This document shows, piece after piece, positions 1,945 to 45,846 of a stretch of DNA of 64,000 nucleotides. The first letter of the stretch is position 1. Each line of letters begins with the position of its first letter. Below the pieces are notes generated by a model. The model was not told the origin of the DNA. It did no database searches and worked only from the letters and a program-made list of their open reading frames with translations. Location: contig OZ024743.1 of the NCBI GenBank assembly GCA_964016885.1, forward strand, positions 81,468,001 through 81,532,000. Direction: 5' to 3'. The stretch is from Eledone cirrhosa. Lineage: Eukaryota. The translations under genes were made by a program, and so were the position numbers.

Positions 1945-2960
<1,016 letters not shown>

Positions 2961-5119: not shown

Positions 5120-5178
5120 CTATATATATATATATACACATATACCTATATATATATATATATATATACATAAATACT

Positions 5179-5213
<35 letters not shown>

Positions 5214-5260
5214 CTATATATATATATATACACATATACCTATATATATACACATATACC

Positions 5261-5292
<32 letters not shown>

Positions 5293-5375
5293 CCGATATT
5301 TATATATATATATACATATATACCTATATATATATACATATATACCTATATATATATATATATATATACATATAT
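4890..5375. repeat. Minisatellite CACATATACC-(TA)n
   Basis: Repeated CATATACC anchors separated by variable TA tracts. Confidence 0.9.
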
Positions 5376-5376
5376 T

Positions 5377-6760
5377 GTTATACTTGGGGAGGGTCATATT
5401 TGTGTAATATTGCCAGAATTAATAACAGAACACACTCACTGTTTGGTTGGTTTTCGCTTTTCGCTTCTGTGTCTTTTATATCGGTAATCTGATATATTCG
5501 GTCCTCAATGTTGCCATTGACTGACCGACGGTAAAAAATAATACAGATACAATATAGACACAAACACATATATATAGTTTATCATAAATCTTTCGTTGCA
5601 CATCTGCAACATCGTCAGTGGTGCTATTGTTTCCTCCTGTTGAATTGTATGGCTACGCCAGTTTTATTCAGTCTGTCTATATATTTATTTCTTTATTTGC
5701 TTGTTTGTTTATTTTATTTTGTCTTCTTTGCGCATGCGTTTGCGTGTGTGTATAGTGTTTTGTTTGATGTGTGATGTGTGTTCGTGATTGGGTGACTAAT
5801 GTGTGTTTATGTGTTTGTTGTTATTGTGCTTGTGTATGTATTTATTTGTTTATTTATTTATTTTATTTTATTTTATTTATTTACTTATTTATACTTCTCT
5901 TAGGTCAGTGTTGTTTGTTTGGGTGTTGTTGTTATTCCATTCATTCTTTCTGTTTAGTCTTGGTCTTCTAAGTTCTATTTCACTGGCCTCTCTGATTTGC
6001 CTATCTGCTGGGTCATTTCTATGTTTAGATATTATTCTAATTTCTATGTTGTCTATCTTACCGTCATGTTGTTGTCTGGCATGTTCGTATAGTACTGATC
6101 CGTTTTTTCGTCCTTTTAGTTCCCCCCAGTGTTGGTCTATCCTTTCACCTATGCTACGAGCTGTCTCACCTATGTATGTTGTTGTCATGTTTCTGCGGGT
6201 ACCCTCTGTACATCTTATGCTATAGACTACGTTTCTAGTTTTACAGTTTATCCGGGGGTTTACCTTACATATGATACAATATCCTACTGGTACAGTGGGT
6301 TTTCTTAAAAGGGTAGGTTTTGCTGATCAGGGATTTTATGGTGGTTCCTGGCTTTTCTACCACCTTAATTTTTAAGTGGGTCTTTCTCAGGGCCTTTCTA
6401 CACTGGTTAGCTAATTTCCCTCCAGGGTTAGCGTCTACAAACATGACACTCTGGTATCTCTGGTTGTCGTACCATGAGGTGGCTTTCCCTATCTTATGTC
6501 TAGCCCTATCTAAGCTATTCCATGATTTGCTCCTGTATAATGGGCAAATTCCTTTCATGTCCAGTTCTATGAGGGTCTTATACTTCTCCATGGCTCCTTC
6601 GTATACTCTGACTCTGTCTCTTTGGTTGTAGCCAGAGAACTGCATGCGGTTGATGAAGTGTTGGATGTGTCTTTCCATTTCTGTTGGGTCGCACACGCGG
6701 GACACGTTCTTCATCACTCGTACCAAGTCTGCGATCAGAATATTAAACTTAGCACTACTG
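5377..6760 (-). mobile_element. 5'-truncated Penelope-like retrotransposon (RT thumb, Cys-rich linker, GIY-YIG endonuclease, 3' pLTR), frameshifted
   Basis: ORFs 6265..6948 (NILIADLVR...RMQFSGY...SVMFVDANPGGKL) and 5889..6188 (YIGETARSIGERIDQH...HARQQH...RQIREA...LNRKNEW); hammerhead in the 3' UTR; 3' end abuts (TA)n. Confidence 0.92.
5581..5622 (-). ncRNA. Minimal type-I hammerhead ribozyme in the PLE pLTR
   Basis: Minus strand: ACCA CTGACGA T GTTGCA-gatg-TGCAAC GAAA GATT TA TGAT; stems I and III each carry a mismatch. Confidence 0.7.
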
Positions 6761-6764
6761 GAGA

Positions 6765-8282
6765 CCACACACCACACACCACACACACCACACACCACAC
6801 ACCACACACTACACACTACACACACTACACACACTATACACACCACACACACCACACACCACACACCACACACACTACACACACCACACACCACACACAC
6901 TACACACACTACACACACTACACATACTACACACACTACACACACCACACACTACACACACTACCCACACCACACACACTACACATACTACACACACTAC
7001 ACACACTACACACTACACACTACACCACACACTACAGACACTACACACACTACACACACTACACACACTACACACACTACACGCACTACACACACTATAC
7101 ACACTATACACACTACACACACTACACACACTACACAATATACACACTAAACACACTACACACTACACACACTACACACACTACACACTACACGCTACAC
7201 ATTACACACTACACACACTACACACACTAGACACACTAGACACACTACACACATTACACACTACACATTAAACACACTACACATTACACACACTACACAC
7301 ACTACACACCACACACTACACACACTACACACACTACACACCACACACTACACACAACACACTACACACTACACGCTACACACACTACACACACTACACA
7401 CACTACACACACGACACACACGACACACACAACACACACTACACACTACACACTACACACCACACACACCACACACTACACACACTACACACCACACACT
7501 ACACACTACACCCTACACACCCTACACACACTACACACACTACACACACTACACAATACACACACTACACACACCACATACACTACACACTACACATTAC
7601 ACACACTACACACACTACACACGCCACACACACCACACACACTACACACTACACACACCATAGACAACACACACTACACACTACACACACCACACACTAC
7701 ACACACTACACACACTACACACCACACACTACACACTACACCCTACACATACTACACACTCCACACACACTACACACACTACACACCACACACTACACAC
7801 TACACCCTACACATACTACACACTCCACACACACTACACACACTACACACACTACACACCACACACTACACACCACACACTACACACACTACACACACTA
7901 CACACCACACACACCACACACTACACACTACACACTACACACACTGCACACACTAAACACTATACACACCACACACACTACACACACTACACACACCACA
8001 CACTACACACACCACACACTACACACACCACGCACTACATGCACTACACACACTACACACTACACATACTTCACACTACACACACTACACACACTACACA
8101 CACTACACACACTACATACTACACACTACACACTACACACTACTCACACTACACACACTACACACACTACACACACTACACCACACACTACACACACTAC
8201 ACCACACACTACACACACCACACACACCACACACACTACACACACAATACACGCTAAACACACTACACACACTACACTATAC
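6765..8282. repeat. About 1.5-kb compound minisatellite (CACACTA/CACACACTA/CACACCA)n
   Basis: Directly visible; fused to the 5' truncation point of the PLE. Confidence 0.95.
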
Positions 8283-8700: not shown

Positions 8701-9552
8701 CTCTATCTATCTAACTATCTCTCTATCTCTCTATCTATCACCCCTCCTCTCTCTCTCTTTCTCTCTCTCCCTCTCTTCTTTCGTCTTTCCTCTTTCCTTT
8801 GTTCCGTTTCAACATCAATGCTCTGTGATTCTATTCTATTGCCTATTTCAATAATCTACCCTGAGCCGCTCTTGTTCGTTTCACTACTTCTTCTTCTATA
8901 CAGCAGTCGATATCATTCTGGTCTGCTTTGATAAACTCCTTTCTCTTACTTTTTACGGTTAGCAGCTAATCAGACATCGCTGCTCTCAAAATTGTCGTAC
9001 GACAAAGTTGAGCAGACGATCAATGTATCACTGTCGCTTTTCCTAAAGAAAAGCTCTACAACATAGCCGACAGTACTCTAATTATTCACTATTTTATTTC
9101 TTCTTCTTCTACTGTCGTCTGCAGCTTTTTTCTTCTTCTTTATCTTTTTATTTTCCTTTTCTTCTCTTACCTTCTTCCCTTTTATCTTTTCCTGTCTTCC
9201 TACCACTTCTCCACTCCCCTCCTCATACTCATGTCCAACCTCCTTAGTCAGATTCCTATTTCCACTTCAGCAGTGTGATATCACAGGTGCTGAATCTTCC
9301 TCAGTTACCTTACATATCTATTGATTTTACAAATCATAAACGTAAGTTAAGTCTTCTCACTCCAAAATTTGTTATTCACAAAATATATTTATATATTTTT
9401 TTTACTTCTTTTTACATCGATATCCATAATTTTAGACTATTTTCATACACTTCCCCCACACGATATTTAATCATTTCTACATAAAGTTAGGTACATATAT
9501 TCCGGCTCGTGTATTCCAGTACTGTCCTTTCACCATTCCGTGAGCGACAAAA

Positions 9553-24353: not shown

Positions 24354-27300
24354 TTTATACTTTGGGAGGGTCTTGTTGCCAATAAGAAACACACGCACCA
24401 ATTTATTATAAATTTAAAAATTTATAAATTTCCGGTTGGTTGTTTGGTTGGTTCCACAGCCGGACGGTTGTTCATATATTGTCAAAGTTCTTTCGTCATA
24501 CATTCTGTGACCTCTTCACTGACTGGGGATTCTTTTCTTTGTTTTGTGGATCTCCTTTGTTCTGTCCTACGCCATCTTGTTTTTGTGTGTGTTGTGTGCT
24601 TAGTTTGCGCATGTGTTACATCCGGGTGTCTGCGTGTATTTTTATTTGTTTATTTGTTTGTTTATTTACATGTTACTGGTTGGTTGTTTGTTCTATGTGT
24701 GTGTGTTTTCATTTTGTCCTTAATTGTAAGTTGTGATGTTACTATTCCATTCATGTTTTCCATTTAATGTTGGTTGGAGTTCATTTATGTTTATTGCCTC
24801 TGTGATTTGTCTAAACATTGCGTCTTTTCTGTGTGTAGATTTTATTTTTATTTTTATGTTCTCTAATTTGCCCTTATGTTCTATTTTAGCATGTTGATGG
24901 AGTACTGATTACTCTTTTCTATCTTGAAGCTCTCGCCAGTGTTCATTTACTCGTTCTTTTATACTACGAGCTGTCTCACCTATGTACACTATATTCTTAT
25001 CTTTACATTGTCCTTCAGTACATCTTATGCTATATACTATGTTTCTAGTTTTACAGTTAATATGGGGGCTTAGTTTACAGATTATGCATTTCTTATCTAT
25101 ACAGGGGGGTCTTTGAAAAGGGTATGTATTACTAATAAGTGTTTTTATGGATTACCTGGTCTTTCTAATATCTTAATATTTAGTTTAATTTTATCTAGGG
25201 CTCTTCTAAATGTGTAATCTAATTCACCTCTAGGGGTTGTATTGATGAACATTACACTCTGGTATTTATTGCTATCATACTATGAGTTTATTCTATTAAC
25301 CTATTGCTTAGAACTGGGTTGTATGAATGTAACAAGGAGACATCGTTTGTGTGTATAATATTTAATCAACAATTTAACAGTATAGTTGACATGTCAATGA
25401 ATAAACGAAAGAATGAAGCAAAGTTAGTAGTTACCGTTTTGATTGCCAGGCAAACGCGGCTGCCAGAAGACGCCTGGCGGAGGCCAGGCGCCGGTAGGGC
25501 AAATGAGAGAGTGAGAACTTAAAGTTATTAGTTTTATAGGGTTCTGACCGGAAGTTACAGAAAGGGTTCTACTTCCCGTCTAGATGTTGTTTATCTATTG
25601 GGGTTGTGAGTCACAACAAGGGAGGCAACTGCTACATAACCTCCCGCCAGAATTTTAGAATATAAAAATCGAATGAAATATGTAGCAAGTTGGCGAGAAT
25701 GTTGTAACAGGCATGAAAATTACGACAAAAGAATGTTTGCAAAAATCAATGATAGATATCAAGGTAGCCAACCGCTCTTGGCCAGAGAACGACTGGACAT
25801 CTATTTATCCATCACCCAAAGATACAATGTAATAAAGTAAGAGAAGAGCTCAAAGTTCAAATGTACAAAATATAGTTCACAGGTGTGCAATCACATGACA
25901 GCAGGAAAGAAAGTGTGTTCCAGAGAATGAATGCAGGTGGTTTCTGTTCTGTGGTATATCGTGAAATTTCCAACCTCCGAATGGATTTTCTCACAGGAAG
26001 AGTGCTGCAAAAATAAATTCTCTGGCTTGTTCTGCTGGTTTTGGTTGTTGGTGAAGCTGTGTTGCTGTTGATGTTGTTGTCTCGCGGAGTGAGCGTATTC
26101 GGTGTTTAAATTCACAGTAAAAAAAAATTTTCAGAAAAAATGAGTTGCGCAAAGTGCTAGAAATAACAGCCGAAGTTGATGGTCGATATTGAGAATGCGT
26201 TGACCTGGAAGGGTCAAGAGGCCAGCGACCAAAGAAATAAGCATTCTGAATAAATGCGCAGTTTTCAACGGCAAATTTACGTGGTAAATTTTTAAACCGG
26301 CAAATAGGAGAATATAGCTTAAGGCTGAAAAATCCTTGGCGAGAAACGTTATCTCTGGCGTGCGGCTATCTCTGTGAGTCGAGATATCTCCGTGAGTTGA
26401 GAATTTGTGCTGCCTACACGTGCCAATACAAGGTTAAGTTAGGTTGAAAAAAATAATATTTCTAACGCGCGAGAAAATGAAAGTGCAACAGGTCGTTGGC
26501 AGCAATTTTGAAAAAAATGTGTGTGAAAGTGACAATGATGAAAAAGAAAGGCTTCACTTAGCATAATTATTGGTGTGAACTTTGAAAAAAAACTTGAACG
26601 ATGAAGAAAACGAAGAAAAAAAAAAAAGGCAATGGTTCATCGAAATAAATGTTCCTGTTGAAATGTTTTTTTTTTTAAATATCAAATTTCTTTTTTGTTT
26701 TTTTTTGTTTTGAAAGTGTTCGTTGTAAGAAACGAGAAACATATATATATATCGTGAAATGCGACAGTTAGTTGATGCGTGAGAGAAAAAGTCTGTCTGT
26801 GCGAAAATTTCACATGTGCGTTTCTTTGACTGCGTATTTTCATAGTTTGTCAATAAAATTTGCTGTGTATTCATAATGTTACTCACACCACACCAGATTC
26901 TGCTATTTTTTTCTTTTTTCGGGGTGACCACTTATAACAATGAACGGCTGCGTGTTCGTATCACGTCAGGGTTACCAATATAGCGAGGATACTGGGTTGT
27001 ATGAATGTAACAAGGAGACATCGTTTGTGTGTATAATATTTAATCAACAATTTAACAGTATAGTTGACATGTCAATGAATAAACGAAAGAATGAAGCAAA
27101 GTTAGTAGTTACCGTTTTGATTGCCAGGCAAACGCGGCTGGCAGAAGACGCCTGGCGGAGGTCAGGCGCCGGTAGGGCAAATGAGTGAGAACTTAAAGTT
27201 ATTAGTTTTATAGGGTTCTGACCGGAAGTTACAGAAAGGGTTCTACTTCCCGTCTAGATGTTGTTAATCTATTGGGGTTGTGAGTCACAACAAGGGGGGC

Positions 27301-29865
27301 AACTGCTACAAACCTTATTCCTAGTTATTTCTATTCTATTCCAAAATGTTCTCCTATACAAGGAGCAGGTCCCATTTGTATAATTATTTACCATTTTTTT
27401 CCATTTGGTTCTGGCTCCTCTATATACTCTGATTTTATGTCTCTGATTGTAACCAGAGAACTGCATCCGGTGGATGAAGTGTTGCATGTATCTATTTAGT
27501 TCTTTGAGGTTGCACATGCGGGACATGTTTCTCATCACTCGTACTAAATCCGCAATCAGTATGTTGATTTTGTTGTGATCCGAAACAGCTGAGTTTCGGT
27601 GGATCAGATATTTGGAAGTCATGGGTTTGGCATAATGGGAATAGAGGATTTGTTTTTTGTTATTAATGGTTTCTAACCAGAGCTCTGTGTCTAGTACAGG
27701 TAATCGATGGTTGGGGTGTTTGCTTGGGTAGTCTATAATAACTCTAATACTCTGGTGGATCGAGTTAGCTATTTGCTGGATGCTTTCCATGGTGTTTTTT
27801 TCTAATTCCTGACTGTTCTCTAGTGGTGGTGTTTTTACTACGATGTTTATATCATCAACGTAGCGGGAGTACATTATCAGGGTTAAGGGGTCTTCTAATT
27901 GTTCTTTAAGTTTAAGTTTAAGTCTACTGTCCCACCATACCATGAATAAGTTAGCTATGTCGCCTGCAATGCTAACACCAATGGCTGCTCCCTCCTCTTA
28001 GGCATATGTGTTTCCATTAAATTTGAACATATGTTCCTTAAGGGTTAGTTTTATACTGGCCCCAACCGCATGTGCAATCATTTTCTTTAGTTCATCATGG
28101 TTTTCGGGGGTCCGTATAACTCTGGTCCACCCGTTCCATCTTTCTGTGTGGGTTTTCTTGGCCATTGATGTAATGATAGGTGATCTGCCTCTTGCTGGCC
28201 TTGTGGGGCAGAGGTTGCTAAGGTCATACGTATCTAGATAATAATTACTATAAGCAAGTTTAAGTAGGAGTCCCAGCTCACTGGTATCAATCCTACGGAA
28301 TTCAACGTTGCTCTCACTGATCATTTCTACGCATTTCTCCACAGCAAAATCCACGTCAATGGATGGGTATAGAGACACAACATCCATACTACCTATTATA
28401 CAGTCTGTTAGGTCCCTAAATCGGTTATTTTCGCTGATTCTGTTGATAAGGTTCTCCGTACTGTCACATATATCCGGGGACATTTCAATGATGGGGCGTA
28501 CGATCAGGGAGAGGAAGTAGGAAAGTCTGTAGTTACTAGCAATATTAGCTCCACAGACTGGCCGCGTTGGTGGTCCCGTGACTGGGTCACTGTTCGACTT
28601 ATGGTCTTTTCGAAGCCCATAAAATGCTGGCACATCATTGTTGGCAGTCCGTTTATTGGGCTGCATTATGTTTGTCCACATCATCATATGACCGTTGAGG
28701 GTTTTCTCCCTATCCTCATGCTCTTGTGGTGTTACTTCTATTGTGTTAGTGATGTGGGGTTGCATTGCCGAGATGTAGTTTGACAGACTGTCAACCGACA
28801 TTCTGCCAGACTTGTCTGTTGGAATGCATGCAATCTCTCCATTACGTGAGCGCTGCATGAGCTTACGCAAACCATTTGCAGATTTTAATCCCAGTTGCTG
28901 GGCCTCCATTCTAGTTTGCTTCTTGCTATACTGTTCTATAATATTTCTAAATTTAGATCTAGCTATATTAAATTGTGCTTCTGTCTGTTCATCGAACTGC
29001 GACGGCAATTGCATGCGTTTGTTAAAAGCTAAAGTCGTGGCGTGGACTCGTCGTAGGTCGGAGGACATATCGGAAGGATTATAAAAAGTAGAATTCAAGG
29101 CTGCTGCTTTATGTGTACTATTGCTTTTGTTATTGTTAGTTGTGTTGTTTCTATTTCTATTTCCACCAACAGACTCATGGTTGTTTCTATGTCTCTCATT
29201 ATTAGTCCTGTCTCTTTCCTCTGGCTCATTGTTATTATCTACTCTATTTTGTGTGCCTGTGTGTTCGTCCTGGTTATTTTCTCTGTCAGTATCGATAGTC
29301 TCCCTTCTTCTTTCAATCCCATACCTTCCCTTACTTCTGTGTTACTGTCATTATCTCTTTTCTGTGTCTGTGTGTCTGTTAAGATTGTGGTGGTGGTGAG
29401 AAGCATAGGATGTGTGTTGATGTGGTTGTTTTGATGTGTGTTGTTGTTGATGTTTGTTGTTGTTGATGTGTGTTGTTGTTGTTATTGTTGTTGTCTCTGT
29501 GTATGTTGTTATTATTGTTGTGTGTGTTGTTGTTGTTACTGTTGTTTGTGTCTGTGTGTCTGTTGCTGTTGTCTCTGTGTATGTTATTATTGTTGATGTG
29601 TGTTGTTGTTGTTATCGATGTTTGTGTCTGTGTGTCTGTTGTTGTTGGGATGTGTGTTGTGTGTGTGTGCGTATGTTGTTACTTTTGTTTTTGTTGCTGT
29701 TGTTTTTGAGGCTCCGACGTAATTTTGTAAATGATTTTTCTATTTCTGACAAGCATCTTATCATATTTACCTTATTATATGTGGCATATTTAGGTGGTAG
29801 CTGTAATATGGATAGTTCATCAGGGTCTACTGTAGTGTTGCCGTATATATTTGTTTTGTTGTTGT
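24352..29865 (-). mobile_element. Near-full-length decayed Penelope-like retrotransposon (N-terminal region, RT, Cys linker, GIY-YIG, pLTR), interrupted by an LTR element
   Basis: N-terminal LSILQLPPKYA...EIEKSFTKLR (~29720-29820); PTDKSG, YGLRKDHK, TRPVCGA, GSMDVVSLYPSID (27998..29098); RYVDD, LPVLD, HYAKPM, RMQFSGY (27269..27943); after the insertion CIDKKCIIC...VYSIRC...YIGETARS...HQHAKIEH...LNGKHEW. Multiple stops and frameshifts; hammerhead with a C3>G change at 24481-24523. Confidence 0.95.
25302..27310 (-). mobile_element. Non-autonomous LTR retrotransposon (probably Gypsy-type): LTRs 25302-25636 and 26979-27310, AACC TSD, tRNA-Trp PBS, PPT
   Basis: Near-identical ~333-bp direct repeats; AACC at 25298-25301 and 27311-27314; removing the element restores the PLE frame (RNKVNRINS*YDSNKYQSVMF). 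PBS TGGTAACCCTGACGTGAT lies next to the 5' LTR and GGCGGGAGG next to the 3' LTR; no gag/pol ORF. Confidence 0.92.
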
Positions 29866-30460
29866 TGAATTATCTTATAAATTTAGAAGGGCTCTAGATA
29901 AACTTAAACTAAATATTAAGATAGTAGAAAGACTAGTTATCTCCATAAAAACACTTATTAGTAATACATACCATTTTCAAAGACCTCTCTGTATAGATAA
30001 GTATTGCATAATCTGTAAACTAAGCCCCATATTAACCGTAAAACTAGAAACATAGTATATAGCATAATATGTACTGAAGGACAATGTAAAGATAAGAATA
30101 TAGTGTACATAGGTGAGACTGCTCGTAGTATAGGAGAACGGTTAAATGAACACTGGCGAGAGCATCAAGATAGAAAAGATTCATCCGTACTCCACCAACA
30201 GGCTAAAATAGAACATAAGGGCAAATTAGAGAACATAGAAATAAAAATAAAATCTACACACAGAAAAGACGCAATGTTTAGACAAATCACAGAGGCAATA
30301 AACATAAATGAACTCCAACCAAAATTAAATAGAAAACATGAATGGAATAGCAACATCACAACTTACAATTAAGGACAAAATGAAAACACACACACATAGA
30401 ACAAACAACCAACCAGTAACATGTAAATAAACAAATAAAACACACACAGACACACATAAT
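29866..30460 (+). mobile_element. Inverted 5' copy of the PLE 3' end (GIY-YIG plus part of the 3' UTR)
   Basis: Reverse complement of about 24630-25228; ORF 30103..30372 YIGETARSIGERLNEH...LNRKHEWN. Confidence 0.92.
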
Positions 30461-30630
30461 AAATGTTCGGTGAATCCATACGTACATATATATATGTGAG
30501 CATGTATGTATATATATATATATACATACTACTGTACGTCTGTATATATATATGTATGTACGTGTACATACTTATATTTAAGTAACAGCCGTGCTAAGAG
30601 TGGGAAATGAAATTTCGTTTAATTTTTTCC

Positions 30631-30660
<30 letters not shown>

Positions 30661-30665
<5 letters not shown>

Positions 30666-30997
30666 GGAGGTGAGTTTTATTGTAGTACAATAAAGCAATG
30701 CAGATATCGGATAAGAAGCACTCTACAGTTTGTAGGACTGGAGTATCAATAATATATAAGATCAAAAGATGGTTAAAAGAGTTCCATGTATTCTATTATG
30801 CGCATTTCAAAAACAAATATCATCATGCAATAACATTTGCATTTTCGTCAGATAAAATAGGGAGACATGATATGAAGGTTAAAACACACTTGTGAATACT
30901 GCGAAAACGCAAATGTTATTGCATGATGATATTTGTTTTTGAAATGCGCATAATAAAATACATGGAACTCTTTTAACCATCTTTTAATCTTATATAT

Positions 30998-31000
<3 letters not shown>
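30661..31000. mobile_element. Fold-back pLTR-like cassette in (TA)n; hammerhead at 30791-30857 (-)
   Basis: Same family as 36039-36452; minus strand TTTTAT CTGACGA [stem II] GAAA T-GCGC-A TA ATAGAA; inverted arm 30899-31000. Confidence 0.88.
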
Positions 31001-31064
<64 letters not shown>

Positions 31065-31319
31065 TGTAAATGATATATACCTGGATAATACATGCTCGGA
31101 ACTGAGGTTTATTGAATATTTTACTGAGAAACAGCGATAGATATTTAATATGTATTGATTAAATCTAAATTATGTTTCATATATATATAAAGAGAGAGAG
31201 GGGGAGGGGAAGAGGAGGAGAAGGGGGGGGGGGGGCTTAGAGAGGATGCTGAACAAACTATGAGCTAACTAGATAGATACATTGATTGACTGATAGAAAG
31301 TTAGACAGGCAGATAGATA

Positions 31320-32295
31320 TCTTTCTTTATTTGCCACAGGGGCGTACAAAATTGGACATTACAAGACGGGACGGCGGGGGTTTTACATAAAATCTTTAAC
31401 AATGATAAATAACAATAAACTATATAAAAATAAAACAATTGAAATCCCCATTAGAGGGAGGGGGTAACGCTACTGCGGGGTTGTTTTACACCCCGTGGAT
31501 AGAACAACCCTCAACACCAGGAACACGTTTTGTAGGTGTTCCCGTCTTCCTTCTTTTTATCTTCCTCAACTTACAGGTTTATATACAGAGAAGGCCCATT
31601 CACTCGGGCCATTTTCGCCACATTCACCCACCTTTCGGCGAATTTACTGGGGTGTAGCACCTCTCTCTCCACTCTCACCTTCCTTCTGAAGTGATACTTA
31701 AAGAAGGAGATGAGTTGTTGTCCGGAGAGAAATGTGTTTGCCCTCAGTACTTTTAACCTCGTCCACCATATTACGTCTTTCGTCATAGCCACCAGACAGA
31801 GGAAGACCGCCTCTCCTTCATTTTCATTCTTAAATGAAGGCGGCCGGGTGATCCTCACGATGGTCTCGGCTGACAACTGGATGCGTTCTACATGTGACAG
31901 TAGCTGTTCGACATAATTCCACAGGTCGGTCACCCCTGAGCACTGAACAATTGCGTACAGAACGGTTTCGATGTCCTGCTCGCATCTTGAACAGGTCCTT
32001 TTGGCAGGATCCCTGCCAGGGCGTCCGTGCCTGCAGATTTTGTCTCGAACTGGTAGAGCTCCTCGGTAGCACTGCCAGGCCAGAGACCTCTGGAAGTTAT
32101 CCATAGGCCCTGGACGGAAAGTTCTCCCGAACAGACTAGTCAGTTCGTCCTCCTCGATGCCTAGAGTTTCCCTGAGAACGTCGGCGCACTTATCCTCCAC
32201 TAATCCCCTATAGAATGTCGAAGTGGAGTCTCCGCTGATTGCCGTTTCCACTTGGTAGAGGGCTGTGAGCGCCTGGGGGCATTGGAGGTGCCAAG
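31320..32295 (-). mobile_element. L1/Tx1-clade LINE 3' fragment (zf-RVT domain plus 3' UTR)
   Basis: ORF 31571..32251 reads LAWQCYRGALPVRDK...CSRCEQDIETVLYAIVQC...LW; the 3' end is AATAAAGAAAG, with (GATA)n-like flanks on both sides. Confidence 0.85.
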
Positions 32296-32468
32296 CAGAT
32301 ATATAGATAGATAGATAGATAAATACACATATCTACATACAAATATACATTCATATATATATATATACATACATGTATATCTACATATCTAAACATACAC
32401 TCAACTTATACATACTTAGATACATACCTACATACATACATACATGCATACATACATACATACATACA

Positions 32469-32538
<70 letters not shown>

Positions 32539-33004
32539 AATTACAGACTTTAAAACGTGATACTCATCAGAAAAGGCGTTTGTGTATTGAGAATGGCTTT
32601 AGTTGGAAGACATTTAATCGATTTCTGATTAGTGTATAGTGAGGAGAGAGGGAGGTGTCTGAGGGGGGAGGGGAGAGATGACGTAGGGGGAGGGAGAGAT
32701 GACGTAGGGGGAGGGAGAGATGGCTAAGGGGAGGAAGGGTTTTGTATGTTGAGGGTGAGTGGGGTATGATAGAGGGAGCTGTTGTAGTTAATCATTATCT
32801 GTGTTGGGTGGTCAAAGAACATTCTGGTCAACTTCCAGTCAGAAGAAGTGTAATACAATTAATCTATTACGATTTGTTTAGAGTTTGGGGAGTGATGATT
32901 GCTCTAAGAATTGACATTATTTTGGGCCTACGTCGGTTGCGACGAACACTGTTCCAGCTTTGCAAAACAACAGAACAAGCCTACTCCTGAAATTATCGTG
33001 TATG

Positions 33005-33447
33005 GAGCTGTAACCTACATGTTCCACAAACACGTGTACTCTTAATATAATTCTCATGTAGAGTCTACGTGATACCAGTGTTATAAGACTAAACACAGAC
33101 ACGTGGATCCTCAACTTAGTTCCATATTAGATTGAGCATGCCACAGTTTGTAATAAGCTGACCTTTTGGAATTACAAGTACAGTCCATCTTATATTGTAG
33201 TATATGTAGCTGAGCCTTCCACAGACACGTGTACCCTTAATGAAGTTCTCAGGGAGGTTCAGAATGACGTGGTGTGACTTGGTTGCCGACTTGTACTACA
33301 GTTACAATACATTTTGTTTCATCTGAGCCGATTGGAACAACGTGAAATCAAATGCGTTAATCAACTGACAGAACATGATGCTGGAAATGCCATGACCGTA
33401 CAATCGTGAGCCAACCATTCTAACCACTAAACTACCTGTCTTCACAC
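33005..33447 (-). mobile_element. CORE-like SINE with repeated 3' units
   Basis: ctaaccactaaactacctgtcttcac is the reverse-complement head; acacgtgtacccttaa units present. Confidence 0.65.
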
Positions 33448-34289
33448 ACTAATATGTATTATATGTATGGTGATCAGCCTTTTTGACATTGAATCATGTG
33501 ATGTGACCAAACTGATTATTCGGCCAAATAGTTTATACGTTTATTTATTCAATAGGACTCTGTTGGTTTTTGGTGTGTTCTTTATGTTGCTGGTCACGTC
33601 CCCACTATGTCAGGCCCGATGTTACAAGTTGCCAGTTTTTAATATTTATATATTGAAATTCCTTTTGAAATTCCTCGCTTCAATGAAAACAGTAAATGGT
33701 GCGATAAGTTGTTGCTTAATTTCAACAAATTGTTAGATTTTGTGTATATATCGTCATTCATATACGACTATGTTCATGTCACATGACACACAAACACTCT
33801 TTAATACTGACCCTTGAAAGAGAAGGGCAGAATTAATTTCAACCTGAAGTCATGAGATATCGCAAAATTTCCATTGGTTTCAGTTGTGTGTTCATCGTAA
33901 TTCGTAAATGTCTGTATGTTTATTTCACATGACACACAAGTATCTCCTCCAATATTGACCTTGAAACAAAAGGTCAGAACTAATGTCTACCTGCAGCCAT
34001 AGGTATAACATGTTTAATGATAAACAACAAACGTTCTGATGAGTCATATATACATGCCAATACAACAGGATGATGTCACATATCACTTGCTCTCTAACTT
34101 ATATAAGACTTTTACTGGGAATTCCTTTTACTGAGAATTGATGTTGACGTTCATTGCGACTCAACTGTTCAGGAACGTCAACCTACCTTTCTATCAGATA
34201 GGTTATCTAGCAATGTGCCTACTGAATATTTCTTATCCATTCAGCGGCATATCATTATAGCCACACTCCACATGGACCTCACATATGGC

Positions 34290-34460
34290 TAGGGTCGGAC
34301 ACCATGCTTTGACGCATAGAGTTACGGCCCTTGCCATTCTGAGTTCAAATCCCACCGAGGTTAACTTTGCTTTTCATCCTTAAGTGGTCGATAAAATAAA
34401 GTACCAGTAATACACTGGGATAATTGCTGGCTTTTTGCCAAAATAGAAACAATTATTTAA
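34290..34460 (+). mobile_element. Nin/Deu-domain SINE (5'-truncated)
   Basis: B-box and Nin motif as in the other copies. Confidence 0.88.
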
Positions 34461-34834
34461 TCAGAATCCGTCCCGTTGTTGACCAAAGGAGACATAAACT
34501 CACCTAATCGTCTAGCCGACGCTCGGGTTTCTATTGTTCAACAATGAGCGAACATATCACTTTTACATACTTATTTTACTGTTATTCAAGTGTTGCCTCA
34601 GTGATATGATGTAGCACCTCGGGGCTCAAATACCATTTATGTTGACCTTAAGAAACCTTGTCTTCCTTAAATTCAGATCTTATTATTGTCTGTCACTACT
34701 GGTACATCTGAGGTAGACGTTACCAGGGGACGCTAATATCTTTTGTCATGTCTAGTAGCAACATCCTTAAAGATAAACGTGTCCTCACCAGACTCACACT
34801 TCTGACACCGAGATATTCTTCAACCGCACCCCAG

Positions 34835-34980
34835 TGAAGACGCATGCTTAGTGGTTAGAGCATTGGGCTTGGAATCGAAAGGTTGTGAGTTCAATTCTCG
34901 GACCGTGTGATGTTGTTTCCTTGAGCAAGACACTTTATTTGAAGTTGCTCCATTTTACTCAGCTGTAGAAATGAGATGAT
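34835..34980 (+). mobile_element. CORE-like tRNA SINE
   Basis: cttagtggttagagc A-box, gagttcaattct B-box, ccttgagcaagacactttatt. Confidence 0.82.
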
Positions 34981-35793
34981 AGGACTGGGGTCTCTATCAT
35001 TAAATCACCCAAGGCACCTTCAACGTGATATAACTTGGAGGAGGCCAGCTAAACCTGCATAGGTGTGAGCTGTCACACACACACAGGAATTGCTGGCAGT
35101 CTAAACATAGTGCAGGATTGGATGGCTGGAGAGGAGATGAACACCGTCAAACATTTCTAAGTCCCTTTGAAATGTTTATGATGGACATACAGTCAGACGT
35201 CTACAGTAGGTAGTCCCAATATCTGAACACACCAGTTACGAGAATTTGATTAATTTATTTGATGTCGTAACCACGGATTTCTCCGTATTTGCAGTATAAC
35301 ATACCAAATGTAATATTTAGTCTGGTGAAATCTTTATTACGATAGAATCCTGTTAAATGTGACTAGTTCCAACTTCTGTCTAAACCCTTCTGGAATATTC
35401 CGTCAACATTCTAAATCTACATACAATACCAACGTATGCAAATATATTATTAAATTCAAAATAAATCAGAGTCGGTGAAGGGGAGGACAGGGGAAGTAGA
35501 GAAGAAATTGTCATTAATGATCGTTACCTAGGCAACGATTTTATATTGATGACTTGATAGCAATATTTATTTTCACTAAAGTTGCATTTTTTAATATTGT
35601 GATCTACTCCAATTAGTGGTGGTCACCATATTGATTATTGTTGTTGTTATTGTTGTCTGGATGTGGAGGTGGGGATTATTGGTGGTGTTGTTGGTGGTGG
35701 TGGCGGTGGTGGTGGTGGTGGTGTTGTTGTTGTCGTAGTTGTAACATTTGTTAACGGAGGTTAGAGTGTCGGTGTTGAATGTGATGGACAAGG

Positions 35794-35879
35794 TTACGAT
35801 TGTAGTAATGAGGATGTACAGGTGAGGTTGAGTAGGAGGGGGAGGAGGTGGTGGAGGAGGGGGAGGGGTCGTGATGATC
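35794..35879 (-). CDS. Candidate terminal host exon encoding a hydrophobic C-terminus (SSRPLPLLHHLLPLLLNLTCTSSLLQS*)
   Basis: Minus-strand acceptor ctgtctatctgttcttatttcag; the phase-1 reading resembles a GPI-addition signal. No partner exon was identified. Confidence 0.25.
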
Positions 35880-35998
35880 CTGAAATAAGAACAGATAGAC
35901 AGTTTCTGTAAGTTCAATCCTATATCAAATCAAGCGTTAAAATAATATATTTCTTCAATGTACTGTGTTGTTTGGTGTGTTATTTCTGTTTACTTTTT

Positions 35999-36038
<40 letters not shown>

Positions 36039-36444
36039 GTAGGAGGTGAGTTTTATTGTAGTACAATAAAGCAATGCAGATATCGGATAAGAAGCACTCT
36101 ACAGTTTGTAGGACTGGAATATACATAATATATAAGATCAAAAGATGGTTAAAGGAGTTCCATGTATTTTATTATGCGCATTTCAAAAACAAACATCATC
36201 ATGCAATAATATTTGTGTTTTCATCAGATAAAACAGGAGAACATGATATGAAGGCTAAAAAACACTTGTGGATAGTGCAGTTATATGTTGATTTAAAACT
36301 GCATTATCCACAAGTGTTTTTTAGCCTTCATATCATGTTCTCCTGTTTTATCTGATGAAAACACAAATATTATTGCATGATGATGTTTGTTTTTGAAATG
36401 CGCATAATAAAATACATGGAACTCCTTTAACCATCTTTTGATCT

Positions 36445-36452
<8 letters not shown>
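36039..36452. mobile_element. Fold-back cassette with two oppositely oriented intact hammerheads (36167-36233 -, 36346-36412 +)
   Basis: Near-perfect ~155-bp arms; plus strand TTTTAT CTGATGA AAACACAAATATTA...TGATGTTTGTTTTT GAAA T-GCGC-A TA ATAAAA; both ends in (TA)n. Confidence 0.92.
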
Positions 36453-36476
<24 letters not shown>

Positions 36477-36804
36477 GTCTGTGTGTGTATGTGTATATGT
36501 GTGTGTGTGATAGGTGTTCACGTCTACCTTTCTCTACTGTACATCTATTACACTTCCCACCTGTCTAATTGCAATAATATATTTGCCAATACGCATGTGC
36601 ACGTCTGTGTGCGTGAGTGTGAGTGTGTGTGTGTATGTGAATGATGTGCTATTAAAGAGAGAGTATTGAAAGTGTGTATAAGAGAGAGAGATATTGGAGG
36701 TGTGTGTGATAGTATAGAAGGTGTGTGTGTGGTTTACATCATTATCACAAATGTATGTTAGTTGTCATCCTCAATTTTTTTAATCCTCGATATCTTCTTT
36801 AGAG

Positions 36805-37031
36805 CTCTCTAGTGTTAGAAACCACGAAATATTCCTGTAAACCTCTCTAGTGTTAGAAACCATGAAATGTTCCTGTAAACTTATCTAGGGTTAGAAATCA
36901 TGAAATGTTCCTGTAAACCTCTCTAGTGTTAGAAATCATAAAATGTTCCTGTAAACCTCTCTAGTGTTAGAAATCATGAAATGTTCCTGTAAACCTCTCT
37001 AGGGTTAGAAATCATGAAATGTTCCTGTAAA
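36805..37031. repeat. 38-bp tandem repeat, 6 copies (CTCTCTAGTGTTAGAAATCATGAAATGTTCCTGTAAAC)
   Basis: Directly visible. Confidence 0.95.
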
Positions 37032-37086
37032 GCGCAGCTCAGTTTTCTCATTCTCTTCACTTTCCTATAGTAAATGAAAGAAATAT

Positions 37087-37396
37087 GTTGCTGTTGTTTC
37101 TGTTGTAATTGTTGTTGTTGCTGTTGTTGTTGTTGTAATTGTTGTTGTTGCTATTGTTGTTGTTGCTATTGTTGTTGATGTTGTTGTTGTTGCTTTTATT
37201 ATGGCCGTTGTTGCTGCTGTTGTTGGCATTGTTGCTGTTGTTGTTGTTGCTGTTGCTGTTATGGCTGTTGTTGTTGCTACTGTTGTTATTGCTGTTGTTG
37301 CTGCTGTTGTTGCTGCTGTTGTTGATGCTGCTGCTGTTGCTGCTGCTGCTGTTGTTGTTGTTGTTGCTACTGTTGTTGTTGCTGCTGCTGTTGTTA
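37087..37396. repeat. (GTT/GCT)n trinucleotide repeat
   Basis: Directly visible. Confidence 0.95.
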
Positions 37397-37695
37397 TTCC
37401 AACTTTCTTTCTACGCTTCCTTTACACAGCTGCAGTTTTTCAATTCTATGCAATGTTTTTTCTTCAATTTCTACCGTTTCTTATGCTAAAACAGTTTCAG
37501 ATGTGATAACACACACATACAAACACACAAAGATACACACACATACACAAACACAAACACACACATATACATATACATATATATATACATATATATGTAT
37601 ATATATATATATATATGTGTGTTTGTATATATTTGTATTTATGTATATAAATATTTTGTATGTATATATATATGTGTGTGTGTATGTGTATATAT

Positions 37696-37735
<40 letters not shown>

Positions 37736-37859
37736 CTCTGCTCTATACTGTACCGATTGTGTTGTTATTTCTGCTTAACTTTTACATATATATATAATAG
37801 ACAAAACAAGGAAGTTTAGTTTTAGTTTACATATGAAAATATATGTATATATATATATG

Positions 37860-38313
37860 CAAAAGTTCTATTTAAATTGTTGGGATACAACAAGCAAATA
37901 TTTTTATAACTGATATAAAGCACTCGACAAGTATTTGGAGTATATATACGATATTAACAAATGGAAACTATATTTATAAAACCATATTTATTCTATTATA
38001 CATATTTCAAGGATACCATGTTAAATTATGGTATGCCTTCATCAGACAAAATACAATATATACCAGTTTTATAAATAAACATTGACCTACCCTTTCAAAA
38101 TGCAACCGTTACTTTTGGAAGACATCAGATATCCTGATGTCTTCCAAAAGTAACGGCTGCATTTTGAAAGGGTACGTCAATGTTTATTTATAAAACTGGT
38201 ATATATTGTATTTTGTCTGATGAAGGCATACCATAATTTAACATGGTATCCTTGAAATATGTATAATAGAATAAATATGGTTTTATAAATATAGTTTCCA
38301 TTTGTTAATATCT

Positions 38314-38320
<7 letters not shown>
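37860..38320. mobile_element. Fold-back cassette with two hammerheads (37991-38051 -, 38211-38271 +)
   Basis: About 185-bp near-perfect arms around 38130; plus strand TTTTGT CTGATGA AGGCATACCAT...ATGGTATCCTT GAAA T-ATGT-A TA ATAGAA; (TA)n on both sides. Confidence 0.9.
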
Positions 38321-38357
<37 letters not shown>

Positions 38358-38604
38358 CATATGTTGCATAATATATGCAGGGGGGGGGGGGTGCAGTGCA
38401 CCTTACTGCTGCATTAAGTGTGGCCACGAACTATTATAGGCACCAGTTTTACGTGTGTTGTATTAAAGCGAATAGCTATGTGTATACTCTGGGAATGTAT
38501 CTTACATTACCTATTGAGTACGCTGAGATACAATCGATCCTGGCATTGATAAATATGCTGGGTCCGTCAACTCCTTATTATATATATATAATAAGGAGTT
38601 GGCG

Positions 38605-38718
38605 GTACTTTATTTTATCGACCCCGTAATTCTTTCATCCTTACGGGGTCGATAAAATAAAGTACCAGTAATGCACTTGGTAATTGCTGGCCTTGTGCCT
38701 AAAGTAGAAACAATTATA
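38605..38718. mobile_element. Nin-SINE 3' fragment with an inverted 5' duplication
   Basis: GTACTTTATTTTATCGACCCCGTAA-loop-TTACGGGGTCGATAAAATAAAGTAC. Confidence 0.85.
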
Positions 38719-41551: not shown

Positions 41552-41639
41552 GCATATCTGAGGAGGTGTCGATTAAGTGTCGGGATGCAATCGCCTAGTC
41601 AAACCCGAGCTGATCGATATCGAAACAGTTGTAATATGC
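41552..41639 (+). ncRNA. Type-I hammerhead ribozyme with a long stem II
   Basis: GCATAT CTGAGGA GGTGTCGATTA...TGATCGATATC GAAA C-AGTT-G TA ATATGC. Confidence 0.88.
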
Positions 41640-42647: not shown

Positions 42648-42650
<3 letters not shown>

Positions 42651-43670
42651 CAAGAAAGTACGTCCATAGAATCATTTGCTAAAATATATACAGTATTTCC
42701 TCTCCCAATCAACATAATCAACCACACAAAAAATCAATTAAACAAGGCATTAAACCATCTATGAAGAAACAATAGATAAATAAACGATAGCTATTTTATC
42801 CGCGATCAACAGCCACAGAATATTTACCCAGTATTTCTAATAGCCCGTGGAAACCGATTAGATATATAGCCAACCATACACAATTAGGTACAAAATCAAA
42901 GTTAGAAGAAAAAATGTATATAAGCATACCAAAATTATGTCTCTACCCCATGAAGTTTCATTCGCTTTTTGTAAATATCCGATCAAGGATAAATTCACGA
43001 GTTTCGAAATCATCAGGAAATATACTCAATTGGACAAAGATTTTTCTTAAATGATCCCCGCCAAAAACGAATTCCAATTGGCTAAGAACTGTGACGTGGC
43101 TAGTGGTCAAGCCATTTTGAATTCGTTTTTGGCGGGGATCATTTAAGAAAAATCTTTGTCCAATTGAGTTTATTTCCTGATGATTTCGAAACTCGTGAAT
43201 TTATGCTTGATCGGATATTTCCAAAAATCGAATGAAACCACTTGGGGTAGAGACATAATTTTGGTATGCTTATATACATTTTTTCTTCTAACTTTGATTT
43301 TGTACCTAATTGTGTATGGTTGGTTATATATCTAATCGATTTCCACGGGCTATTAGAAATACTGGGTAAATATTCTGTGGCTGTTGATCGCGGATAAAAT
43401 AGCTATCGTTTATTTATCTATTGTTTCTTCATAGATACTTTTTAAACTTATAGCCTTGTTTAATTGATTTTTTGTGTGGTTGATTATGCTGATTGGGAGA
43501 TGAAATACTGTATATATTTTATCAAATGATTCTATGGACTTACTTTCTTATATATTGCTCTGATTGTTGATTATTTAATTAATTAATTCGTCATTGAGCC
43601 ACACCGTGAATGGTTGCCAAAAACACATATATATCTATATATATCTACGGCTCTGTCTAGTTTATGTATA
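42648..43670. mobile_element. Large fold-back element (~440-bp arms, 42648-43085 / 43108-43553) in (TA)n
   Basis: Arm-to-arm complementarity can be read throughout; contains the hammerhead-like CTGATGA-TTTC-GAAA at about 43177 and its complement at about 43003. Confidence 0.88.
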
Positions 43671-43977: not shown

Positions 43978-44038
43978 TTTATTATATATATTTCAAAGGT
44001 ACTGTTTTTTTTTTTCAATATGTCTTCATCAGACAAAA
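43978..44038 (-). ncRNA. Hammerhead ribozyme of the same family as 37991/38211
   Basis: Minus strand TTTGT CTGATGA AG...CTTT GAAA T-ATAT-A TA ATAAA; shares the ATATTAACAAATG tail; ends in (TA)n. Confidence 0.72.
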
Positions 44039-45801: not shown

Positions 45802-45846
45802 ATCGTGCTGATGAGACCAGTTTAGTTTGAAATGCACATCCACGAT
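45802..45846 (+). ncRNA. Minimal type-I hammerhead ribozyme
   Basis: ATCGTG CTGATGA GACCAGTTTAGTTT GAAA T-GCAC-A TC CACGAT; the tail runs into (TA)n at about 45928. Confidence 0.85.

Follow-up and report, generated by a model that had tools for sequence, protein, structure and literature searches.

Two near-perfect inverted repeats are present in the window, the 64,000-nucleotide stretch of Eledone cirrhosa DNA analysed here. The first palindrome (P1) has 167 nt arms (36119-36285 and 36294-36460) that are 98% identical and separated by an 8-nt loop, and the second (P2) has 188 nt arms (37941-38128 and 38134-38321), also 98% identical, around a 5-nt loop. Both elements are lopsided, such that the first ~80 nt (36040-36118 in P1 and 37860-37940 in P2) have no partner, and (TA)n adjoins both ends of each element in the window. 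No relatedness between the P1 and P2 palindromes is detected by blastn. A descriptor for type I hammerheads (a CUGAUGA...GAAA...UA core plus a check of the three helices) places one core in each of the four arms, at 36227 (-), 36352 (+), 38045 (-) and 38217 (+). An earlier note on this DNA had described palindromes with an intact hammerhead on each strand, the left arm on minus and the right arm on plus; this geometry and strand order are found in both palindromes, although the description missed their retroelement origin (see below). The features are as follows, with the arms assigned to pLTRs on the grounds given in the next section.

36040..36118, minus strand: P1 tail of 79 nt, on the left arm only, with AATAAA at 36057-36052; adjoins (TA)n
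36119..36285, minus strand: P1 left arm, assigned to the pLTR end of a Penelope-like element, with the hammerhead sense on minus
36163..36237, minus strand: P1 left type I hammerhead (C3 36227, predicted cut after 36173), with a short palindromic helix III
36286..36293, no strand: P1 junction loop, at the CATATG truncation hotspot of the P1 family
36294..36460, plus strand: P1 right arm, assigned as a tail-less inverted pLTR copy, entering (TA)n from about 36452
36342..36416, plus strand: P1 right type I hammerhead (C3 36352, predicted cut after 36406)
37860..37940, minus strand: P2 tail of 81 nt, on the left arm only; adjoins (TA)n
37941..38128, minus strand: P2 left arm, assigned to the pLTR end of a second Penelope-like family
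37987..38055, minus strand: P2 left type I hammerhead (C3 38045, predicted cut after 37997)
38129..38133, no strand: P2 junction loop, a GATATC-type junction
38134..38321, plus strand: P2 right arm, assigned as a tail-less inverted pLTR copy, entering (TA)n
38207..38275, plus strand: P2 right type I hammerhead (C3 38217, predicted cut after 38265)

The descriptor matches eleven cores in the window, compared with a mean of 0.1 (maximum 1) in 30 dinucleotide shuffles; a search of the whole window against Rfam gave no match at the gathering score. Solo hammerhead cores are present at 41558 (+), which reads CUGAGGA and has an 11-bp helix II, at 44032 (-), which is a relative of P2 (75%), and at 45808 (+), a short, canonical-looking motif. 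An older P1 insertion (92%) lies at 30663-31004; its right arm lacks a tail and starts within the core, without the CUG, and its sole whole hammerhead is on the minus strand (CUGACGA). There is also a third, larger twin-hammerhead palindrome at 42648-43553 (916 bp, 92%, cores at 43016 (-) and 43177 (+)), which has a longer helix III and is multi-copy (3,687 first-look candidates), with head-to-head partners and variable truncation; a search of 20 loci did not find a parent frame for it.

Three other types of repeat are close to the palindromes. A 38-bp tandem repeat of about six copies (36797-37024) lies between P1 and P2, a 50-nt stretch present at both 35952-36001 and 37737-37786 (72% alike) sits directly ahead of the microsatellite that precedes each palindrome, and a short repeat at 38564-38717, dispersed and containing hairpins formed by inverted repeats of 63 nt and 42 nt, has about eight further copies in the window. 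None of the listed contig pieces bridges palindrome 1, and there is therefore no independent read confirmation of that locus; an assembly artefact is unlikely, because there are many copies with varied junctions.

Parent elements and related copies

Both palindromes are almost certainly stubs of the 3′ ends (pLTRs) of two Penelope-like retroelement (PLE) families. At four other loci (L063, L114, L217 and L224) an arm is linked in cis to frames for a reverse transcriptase (RT) and a GIY-YIG endonuclease, and the RT motifs in the P1 and P2 parent frames are ones that we take to be of the PLE type. In L063 a 561-codon RT frame is followed by a Cys-rich linker, a GIY-YIG frame, a 3′ UTR of about 1.5 kb and a tailed P2 arm, and L114 has a 507-codon RT-linker-GIY-YIG frame followed by a 1 kb UTR and a tailed P1 arm. 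L217 contains, in sequence, an inverted copy, a pLTR, a leader, the frame, a UTR and a pLTR; the two direct P1 pLTRs (5151-5394 and 8853-9096) are 3.7 kb apart and flank the frame, and the tail continues into the leader, about 80 nt ahead of the ATG. The upstream pLTR of L217 begins about 57 nt ahead of the truncation hotspot, which was thus rejected as the pLTR start. Direct flanking pLTRs were not seen in the P2 loci examined. In L224 an 800-codon open frame has a tailed pLTR on one side and, on the other, an inverted pLTR that lacks the tail; this 800-aa P1-family product has neither a Pfam nor a PDB match, and the P2 GIY-YIG frame scores below the Pfam cut-off (E 0.0013, 19.4 versus 22.6 bits). 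The leader of the full-length frame in L224 starts directly after a run of ~23 A (1198-1220), a few letters beyond the tail end of other copies. In this one case the run may mark the RNA 5′ end or a captured poly(A).

The two parent proteins are 55% identical and align lengthwise with homologues, and both contain a C-x-C-x5-C-P-L-x3-C segment ahead of the GIY-YIG domain. A Cys-rich linker between the RT and the endonuclease defines the Neptune/Nematis type in the available text of PMC3846280 and PMC8557442, and its presence in both parent proteins, which have the endonuclease at the C terminus, places them tentatively on the Neptune/Nematis side. PLEs of the Naiad/Chlamys type are ruled out, as these have an N-terminal endonuclease and no canonical hammerhead, whereas the elements described here carry a hammerhead and have the endonuclease at the C terminus. 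The non-LTR retrozymes (10.64898/2026.07.22.740005) are, in the portion of that work available, similarly non-coding, PLE-derived and equipped with a type I hammerhead, but they are head-to-tail tandems, whereas P1 and P2 are single head-to-head pairs; an identity with retrozymes was rejected because head-to-tail tandem hammerhead units were not found.

The elements share many features with insertions of endonuclease-containing (EN+) PLEs as described in the accessible parts of Craig et al. 2021 (PMC8557442), which reports an inverted 5′-truncated copy, a one-sided tail and a (TA)n bias, and Arkhipova et al. 2013 (PMC3846280), which reports head-to-head inverted pLTRs with junction palindromes. 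The shared features are the head-to-head inverted pLTR, the tail on one arm, the junction palindromes, the (TA)n target, a full-length copy in partial tandem, and the order of RT then GIY-YIG. There are also departures, in that the tail is about 80 nt in P1 and P2 compared with 30-40 in the published insertions, and that P1 and P2 are extreme pLTR-only stubs, very numerous, and have a sharp truncation hotspot. The two palindromes are real but ordinary PLE insertions. Broken RT/GIY-YIG relics of other Penelope-like families are present elsewhere in the window, at 5889-6951 (-), 24912-25151 (-), 27269-29341 (-) and 30019-30369 (+).

Among the matches listed in the octopus's own genome (3.0 Gb), the 40 copies scored per family are 98-100% identical. 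An exact 15-mer from P1 has 8,904 sites (0 for the backwards control) and one from P2 has 905 (control 9). If a head-to-head pair is counted as tight when its 15-mers are no more than 30 nt apart, there are at least 933 such pairs of P1 and at least 63 of P2, which account for 21% and 14% of the exact sites, respectively; a single mismatch to the 15-mer in its right arm keeps the window P1 out of the 933. When the first 100 sites listed for each family were examined for neighbours within 8 kb, 29 of 33 proved to be head-to-head for P1 (one is tail-to-tail and three are same-strand) and 11 of 11 for P2, giving 40 head-to-head among 41 opposite-strand neighbours, and the distances are either below 100 nt or 0.2-6 kb. 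Meeting the antisense copy first is thus the family rule at any spacer. Exactly one arm is tailed in 33 of 35 P1 and 36 of 37 P2 pairs (69 of 72 in all) with spacers of 0-3.8 kb, a count that is biased towards tails insofar as some of the loci came from searches with the tailed arm. Flanking (TA)n is present at the window elements and in the flanks of 60 loci, and no target-site duplication is resolvable within it. Samples taken in order of position show arm ends 65-75 nt upstream of C3 in 16 of 30 cases for P1 and 82-104 nt upstream of it in 16 of 29 for P2, and the commonest P1 junction is a perfect palindrome around CATATG.

Folding of the hammerheads and of the hairpin

All four motifs have the type I components (CUGANGA, GAAA and UH, with three helices and a core conserved beyond its flanks), but a stable helix III is not predicted in the monomer. 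Helix III consists only of a palindromic 8-mer (AUGCGCAU and AUAUGUAU), with a predicted pairing probability of 0.0 in all four single arms at both 37 and 15 C, so the description of the hammerheads as intact holds for the core letters and not for helix III. In predicted homodimers helix III forms between the molecules (-43.9 versus -31.8 and -36.8 versus -33.0 kcal/mol). Helix II of P1 is bulged and runs to about 16 bp. Of the arms with at least 90% identity, 112 of 115 in P1 and 105 of 122 in P2 retain the core, as do 18 of 21 diverged P2-like arms. Judging from the mismatch in these diverged arms, which is 2.2% in the core and 16.8% outside it, selection acts on the core in the active element.

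For hammerheads whose helix III is this short, cleavage by single copies is reported as poor or absent (PMC4209133, PMC6765202); the available text of the former gives no detectable cleavage of monomers, and in both a second sense copy is required and cutting is weak. The antisense arm cannot act as the partner hammerhead for the sense arm. The PLE type I hammerheads acting as dimers (Cervera and de la Pena 2014, PMC4209133, as far as accessible) resemble those of P1 and P2 in having the core in the pLTR, a short palindromic helix III, a long helix II and dual motifs on opposite strands, and pairs of hammerheads on opposite strands, 100-700 bp from each other, are already mentioned there. They differ in that helix II is longer in P1 and P2.

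The earlier note proposed that the hairpin buries the ribozyme, and this part is likely right as a matter of predicted physics. A read-through transcript of either strand folds at -274 to -301 kcal/mol with 11 of 11 core letters in pairs with the antisense arm, and the hammerhead fold can be imposed only at a cost of 99 (P1) or 90 (P2) kcal/mol; these values derive from equilibrium folds of whole elements and step-wise folds of the growing chain, and are not kinetic simulations. The buried ribozyme is likely idle as a single copy. However, the further claim that the palindrome is tolerated because it traps the ribozyme is not supported, in that the geometry is standard for PLEs (PMC8557442, PMC3846280, available text) and is kept at spacers of 0.2-6 kb. 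A trap is probably not needed for tolerance, because the lone arm is itself predicted to lack helix III and such motifs are the poor cutters described above (PMC4209133, PMC6765202).

It remains to weigh whether palindromes have been favoured because they cage a harmful ribozyme in introns and supply a substrate for ADAR or Dicer, which we consider very improbable. The predicted core burial and its 90-99 kcal/mol penalty agree with such a role, as does the very high standing of octopus in hyper-editing and genomic dsRNA potential (PMC5625713, in part). The depletion of tandem retrozymes from Xenopus introns (10.64898/2026.07.22.740005, as far as available) is, by analogy, the strongest of the indirect arguments that free ribozymes are selected against. 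A P1 palindrome next to a host exon (L013; see below) has a gene-sense arm from which the entire ribozyme is gone, a single case that is readable either way. Against this, the head-to-head order is unchanged with kilobases between the arms, and this order is therefore in itself no sign of selection for a trap; tight pairs are just 21% of the P1 and 14% of the P2 exact sites; single arms are predicted to be without helix III, with no monomer cleavage detected for such motifs in the accessible part of PMC4209133; and a host exon was not found among the frames screened in the window and its flanks. The adaptive part of the earlier proposal is thus unsupported, and the mirrored ribozymes probably follow from the way in which the element inserts, rather than having been built as an RNA trap.

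Host genes, transcription and editing

Pfam searches of eight long frames and 140 of the 177 complexity-filtered frames of at least 55 aa in the window found no host exon, and neither did those of 94 of the 359 candidate frames in the flanks (100 kb each side). The only hits above the cut-off for window frames are two to GIY-YIG, accompanied by weak sub-threshold hits. Two exon-like minus-strand stretches (35560-35900 and 37040-37480) were rejected as simple repeats with stops. There are two informative instances elsewhere in the genome. In L013 a host amidohydrolase exon, whose best match is an Argonauta hians protein (67%) and which makes an octopod host probable, has a P1 palindrome (1469-1814) inserted about 20 nt past its stop codon; the entire hammerhead of the gene-sense arm has been lost by an internal deletion, which could be a result of selection or a deletion induced by the hairpin. 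In L017 an intact P1 palindrome lies about 570 nt from a frame (2318-2908, minus strand) which presumably resembles an eEF2-kinase exon and which has no Pfam hit. Because of this proximity, some P1 copies are probably intronic.

Of the 23 sequencing runs listed, the five recorded as RNA are metatranscriptomes with small shares and were set aside. Four sequencing runs were mapped on 28000-37480, an interval that includes palindrome 1. Run X1 has DNA depth on the unique flanks, and run X4, whose kind is unknown, has depth on repeats and none on the unique flanks, a pattern that is not readable as absent transcription. At position 36119 an A>G difference is present in 1231 of 1232 DNA reads of X21, and paralogous copies can therefore mimic editing. 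Among genomic copies there is no A>G excess for either P1 (2 on 44 A columns versus 7 T>C on 59 T columns) or P2 (7 on 59 versus 8 on 67), in a tally that tests only the copying of edited RNA into DNA.

Octopus is a top hyper-editing species in the available text of Porath et al. 2017 (PMC5625713), in which a palindromic frog repeat and a lizard Penelope are both heavily edited ADAR targets. The palindromic Harbinger repeat of Xenopus is, like P1 and P2, a self-folding repeat of about 200 bp, and the lizard Penelope is reported as massively edited; octopus repeats fall outside the repeat-level analysis of that paper. By analogy, the tight hairpins across the genome (at least 933 and 63) are plausible ADAR substrates. 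Editing of transcribed P1 or P2 copies is likewise plausible, but would be a general property of inverted repeats.

Origin of the head-to-head pairs

Each palindrome is very probably a short PLE insertion with two hammerhead-bearing 3′ ends head to head in (TA)n, likely primed from both cut strands, with burial of the ribozyme likely a side effect. The two-priming mechanism itself we hold with moderate confidence. The PLE protein would nick both strands of (TA)n, one cDNA beginning at the tail end and the other about 80 nt inside. Joined through short self-complementary letters (CATATG in P1 and GATATC-like in P2), both cDNAs would mostly end at 65-105 nt upstream of the core. Should a host transcript read through the insertion, the hairpin would form and the ribozyme would stay inactive, and the duplex is predicted to be an ADAR or Dicer substrate like any inverted repeat. 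We note that a lizard PLE protein cuts and extends both strands in vitro, and that two RT start sites bracket the tail (PMC11167929, available text).

The arms of one insertion are more alike than those of different insertions. Divergence within an insertion is 1.0% for P1 and 1.2% for P2, compared with 1.9% and 3.4% between insertions (permutation p < 0.0001), and subfamily-diagnostic cells agree within an insertion in 64 of 66 and 207 of 214 instances, where 18 and 90 discordant cells would be expected if the arms were independent. This agreement persists at long spacers. Because the subfamily alleles agree within an insertion, both arms come from one source, which could mean a single RNA, a pair of RNAs made from the same active master, or gene conversion at a later time.

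Alleles common to both arms are also consistent with one arm being a copy of the other, made either when a single cDNA snaps back at its self-complementary junction and serves as its own template or when an antisense RNA primes itself; self-priming on an antisense template is the alternative proposed in PMC3846280, in the part available. We consider this rather unlikely. The perfectly palindromic CATATG junctions that are commonest in the P1 list fit it well, and in 11 of 19 long insertions picked by hand it is the tailed arm that extends further upstream, as self-copying needs. However, the tail-less arm reaches further in seven (in one the arms are even), and there it holds up to 2.2 kb without a counterpart in the tailed arm, while the tail is on the tailed arm alone. 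In these seven of 19 each arm has private sequence; simple self-copying is therefore excluded, and the pattern fits two primings.

There are informative rearrangements of two types among the longer or more complex insertions. First, within-frame inversions are present in long copies (L063 4313-4560, L222, L223 and L071), in which the 5′ part of the frame is on the opposite strand; such inversions are expected from two primings. Second, one P2 insertion (L043 793-1769) has four tandem 100-nt partial arms at its junction and another (L044 1774-2038) has a repeated 82-nt piece there, and we read these as signs of repeated template switching at P2 junctions.

A third explanation is that the whole palindrome is copied as a unit from a palindromic master, as a non-autonomous fold-back element of MITE-like or retrozyme-like character. 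The strong length mode, with 16 of 30 P1 and 16 of 29 P2 arms stopping in a narrow zone upstream of the core, and the many identical P1 junctions are compatible with this. However, junction letters vary and lengths range from 0 to 3.8 kb, no allele is particular to tailed or tail-less arms, the copies lack the A>G excess that an edited hairpin template would leave, and tandem monomers such as those of retrozymes are absent (same-strand neighbours are 3 of 44 pairs). Copying as a unit is already largely refuted by the junction spectrum, and we regard it as extremely improbable.

Two primings from both cut strands could also involve the hammerhead directly. In this tentative and improbable variant, the helix III palindrome would be a dimer signal, bringing two RNAs of the same source into one particle, where each would prime one cut strand, one at the tail and the other 80 nt inside, with the cDNAs meeting head to head. 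The idea is compatible with the data because helix III is predicted to form between molecules, the arms are of the same source, and the arms are not copies of each other. We did not find it stated in the literature searched, within the text available.

As a locus, the two palindromes carry little weight, being two among about a thousand similar stubs; the remaining interest lies in the evidence for two primings and in the size of the hairpin population. The many young copies with varied junctions allow a test of PLE integration by two primings versus self-copying, which is an open question in the PLE literature as far as it is available. If the dimer signal were true, a PLE hammerhead would have a packaging role like that of the retroviral kissing loop, which would explain the insertion with two arms and one tail, and the stubs would supply octopod hyper-editing with thousands of near-perfect hairpins. 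Apart from this, the about 1,000 exact-match tight hairpins of the two families are candidates for part of the dsRNA load and hyper-editing of octopus.
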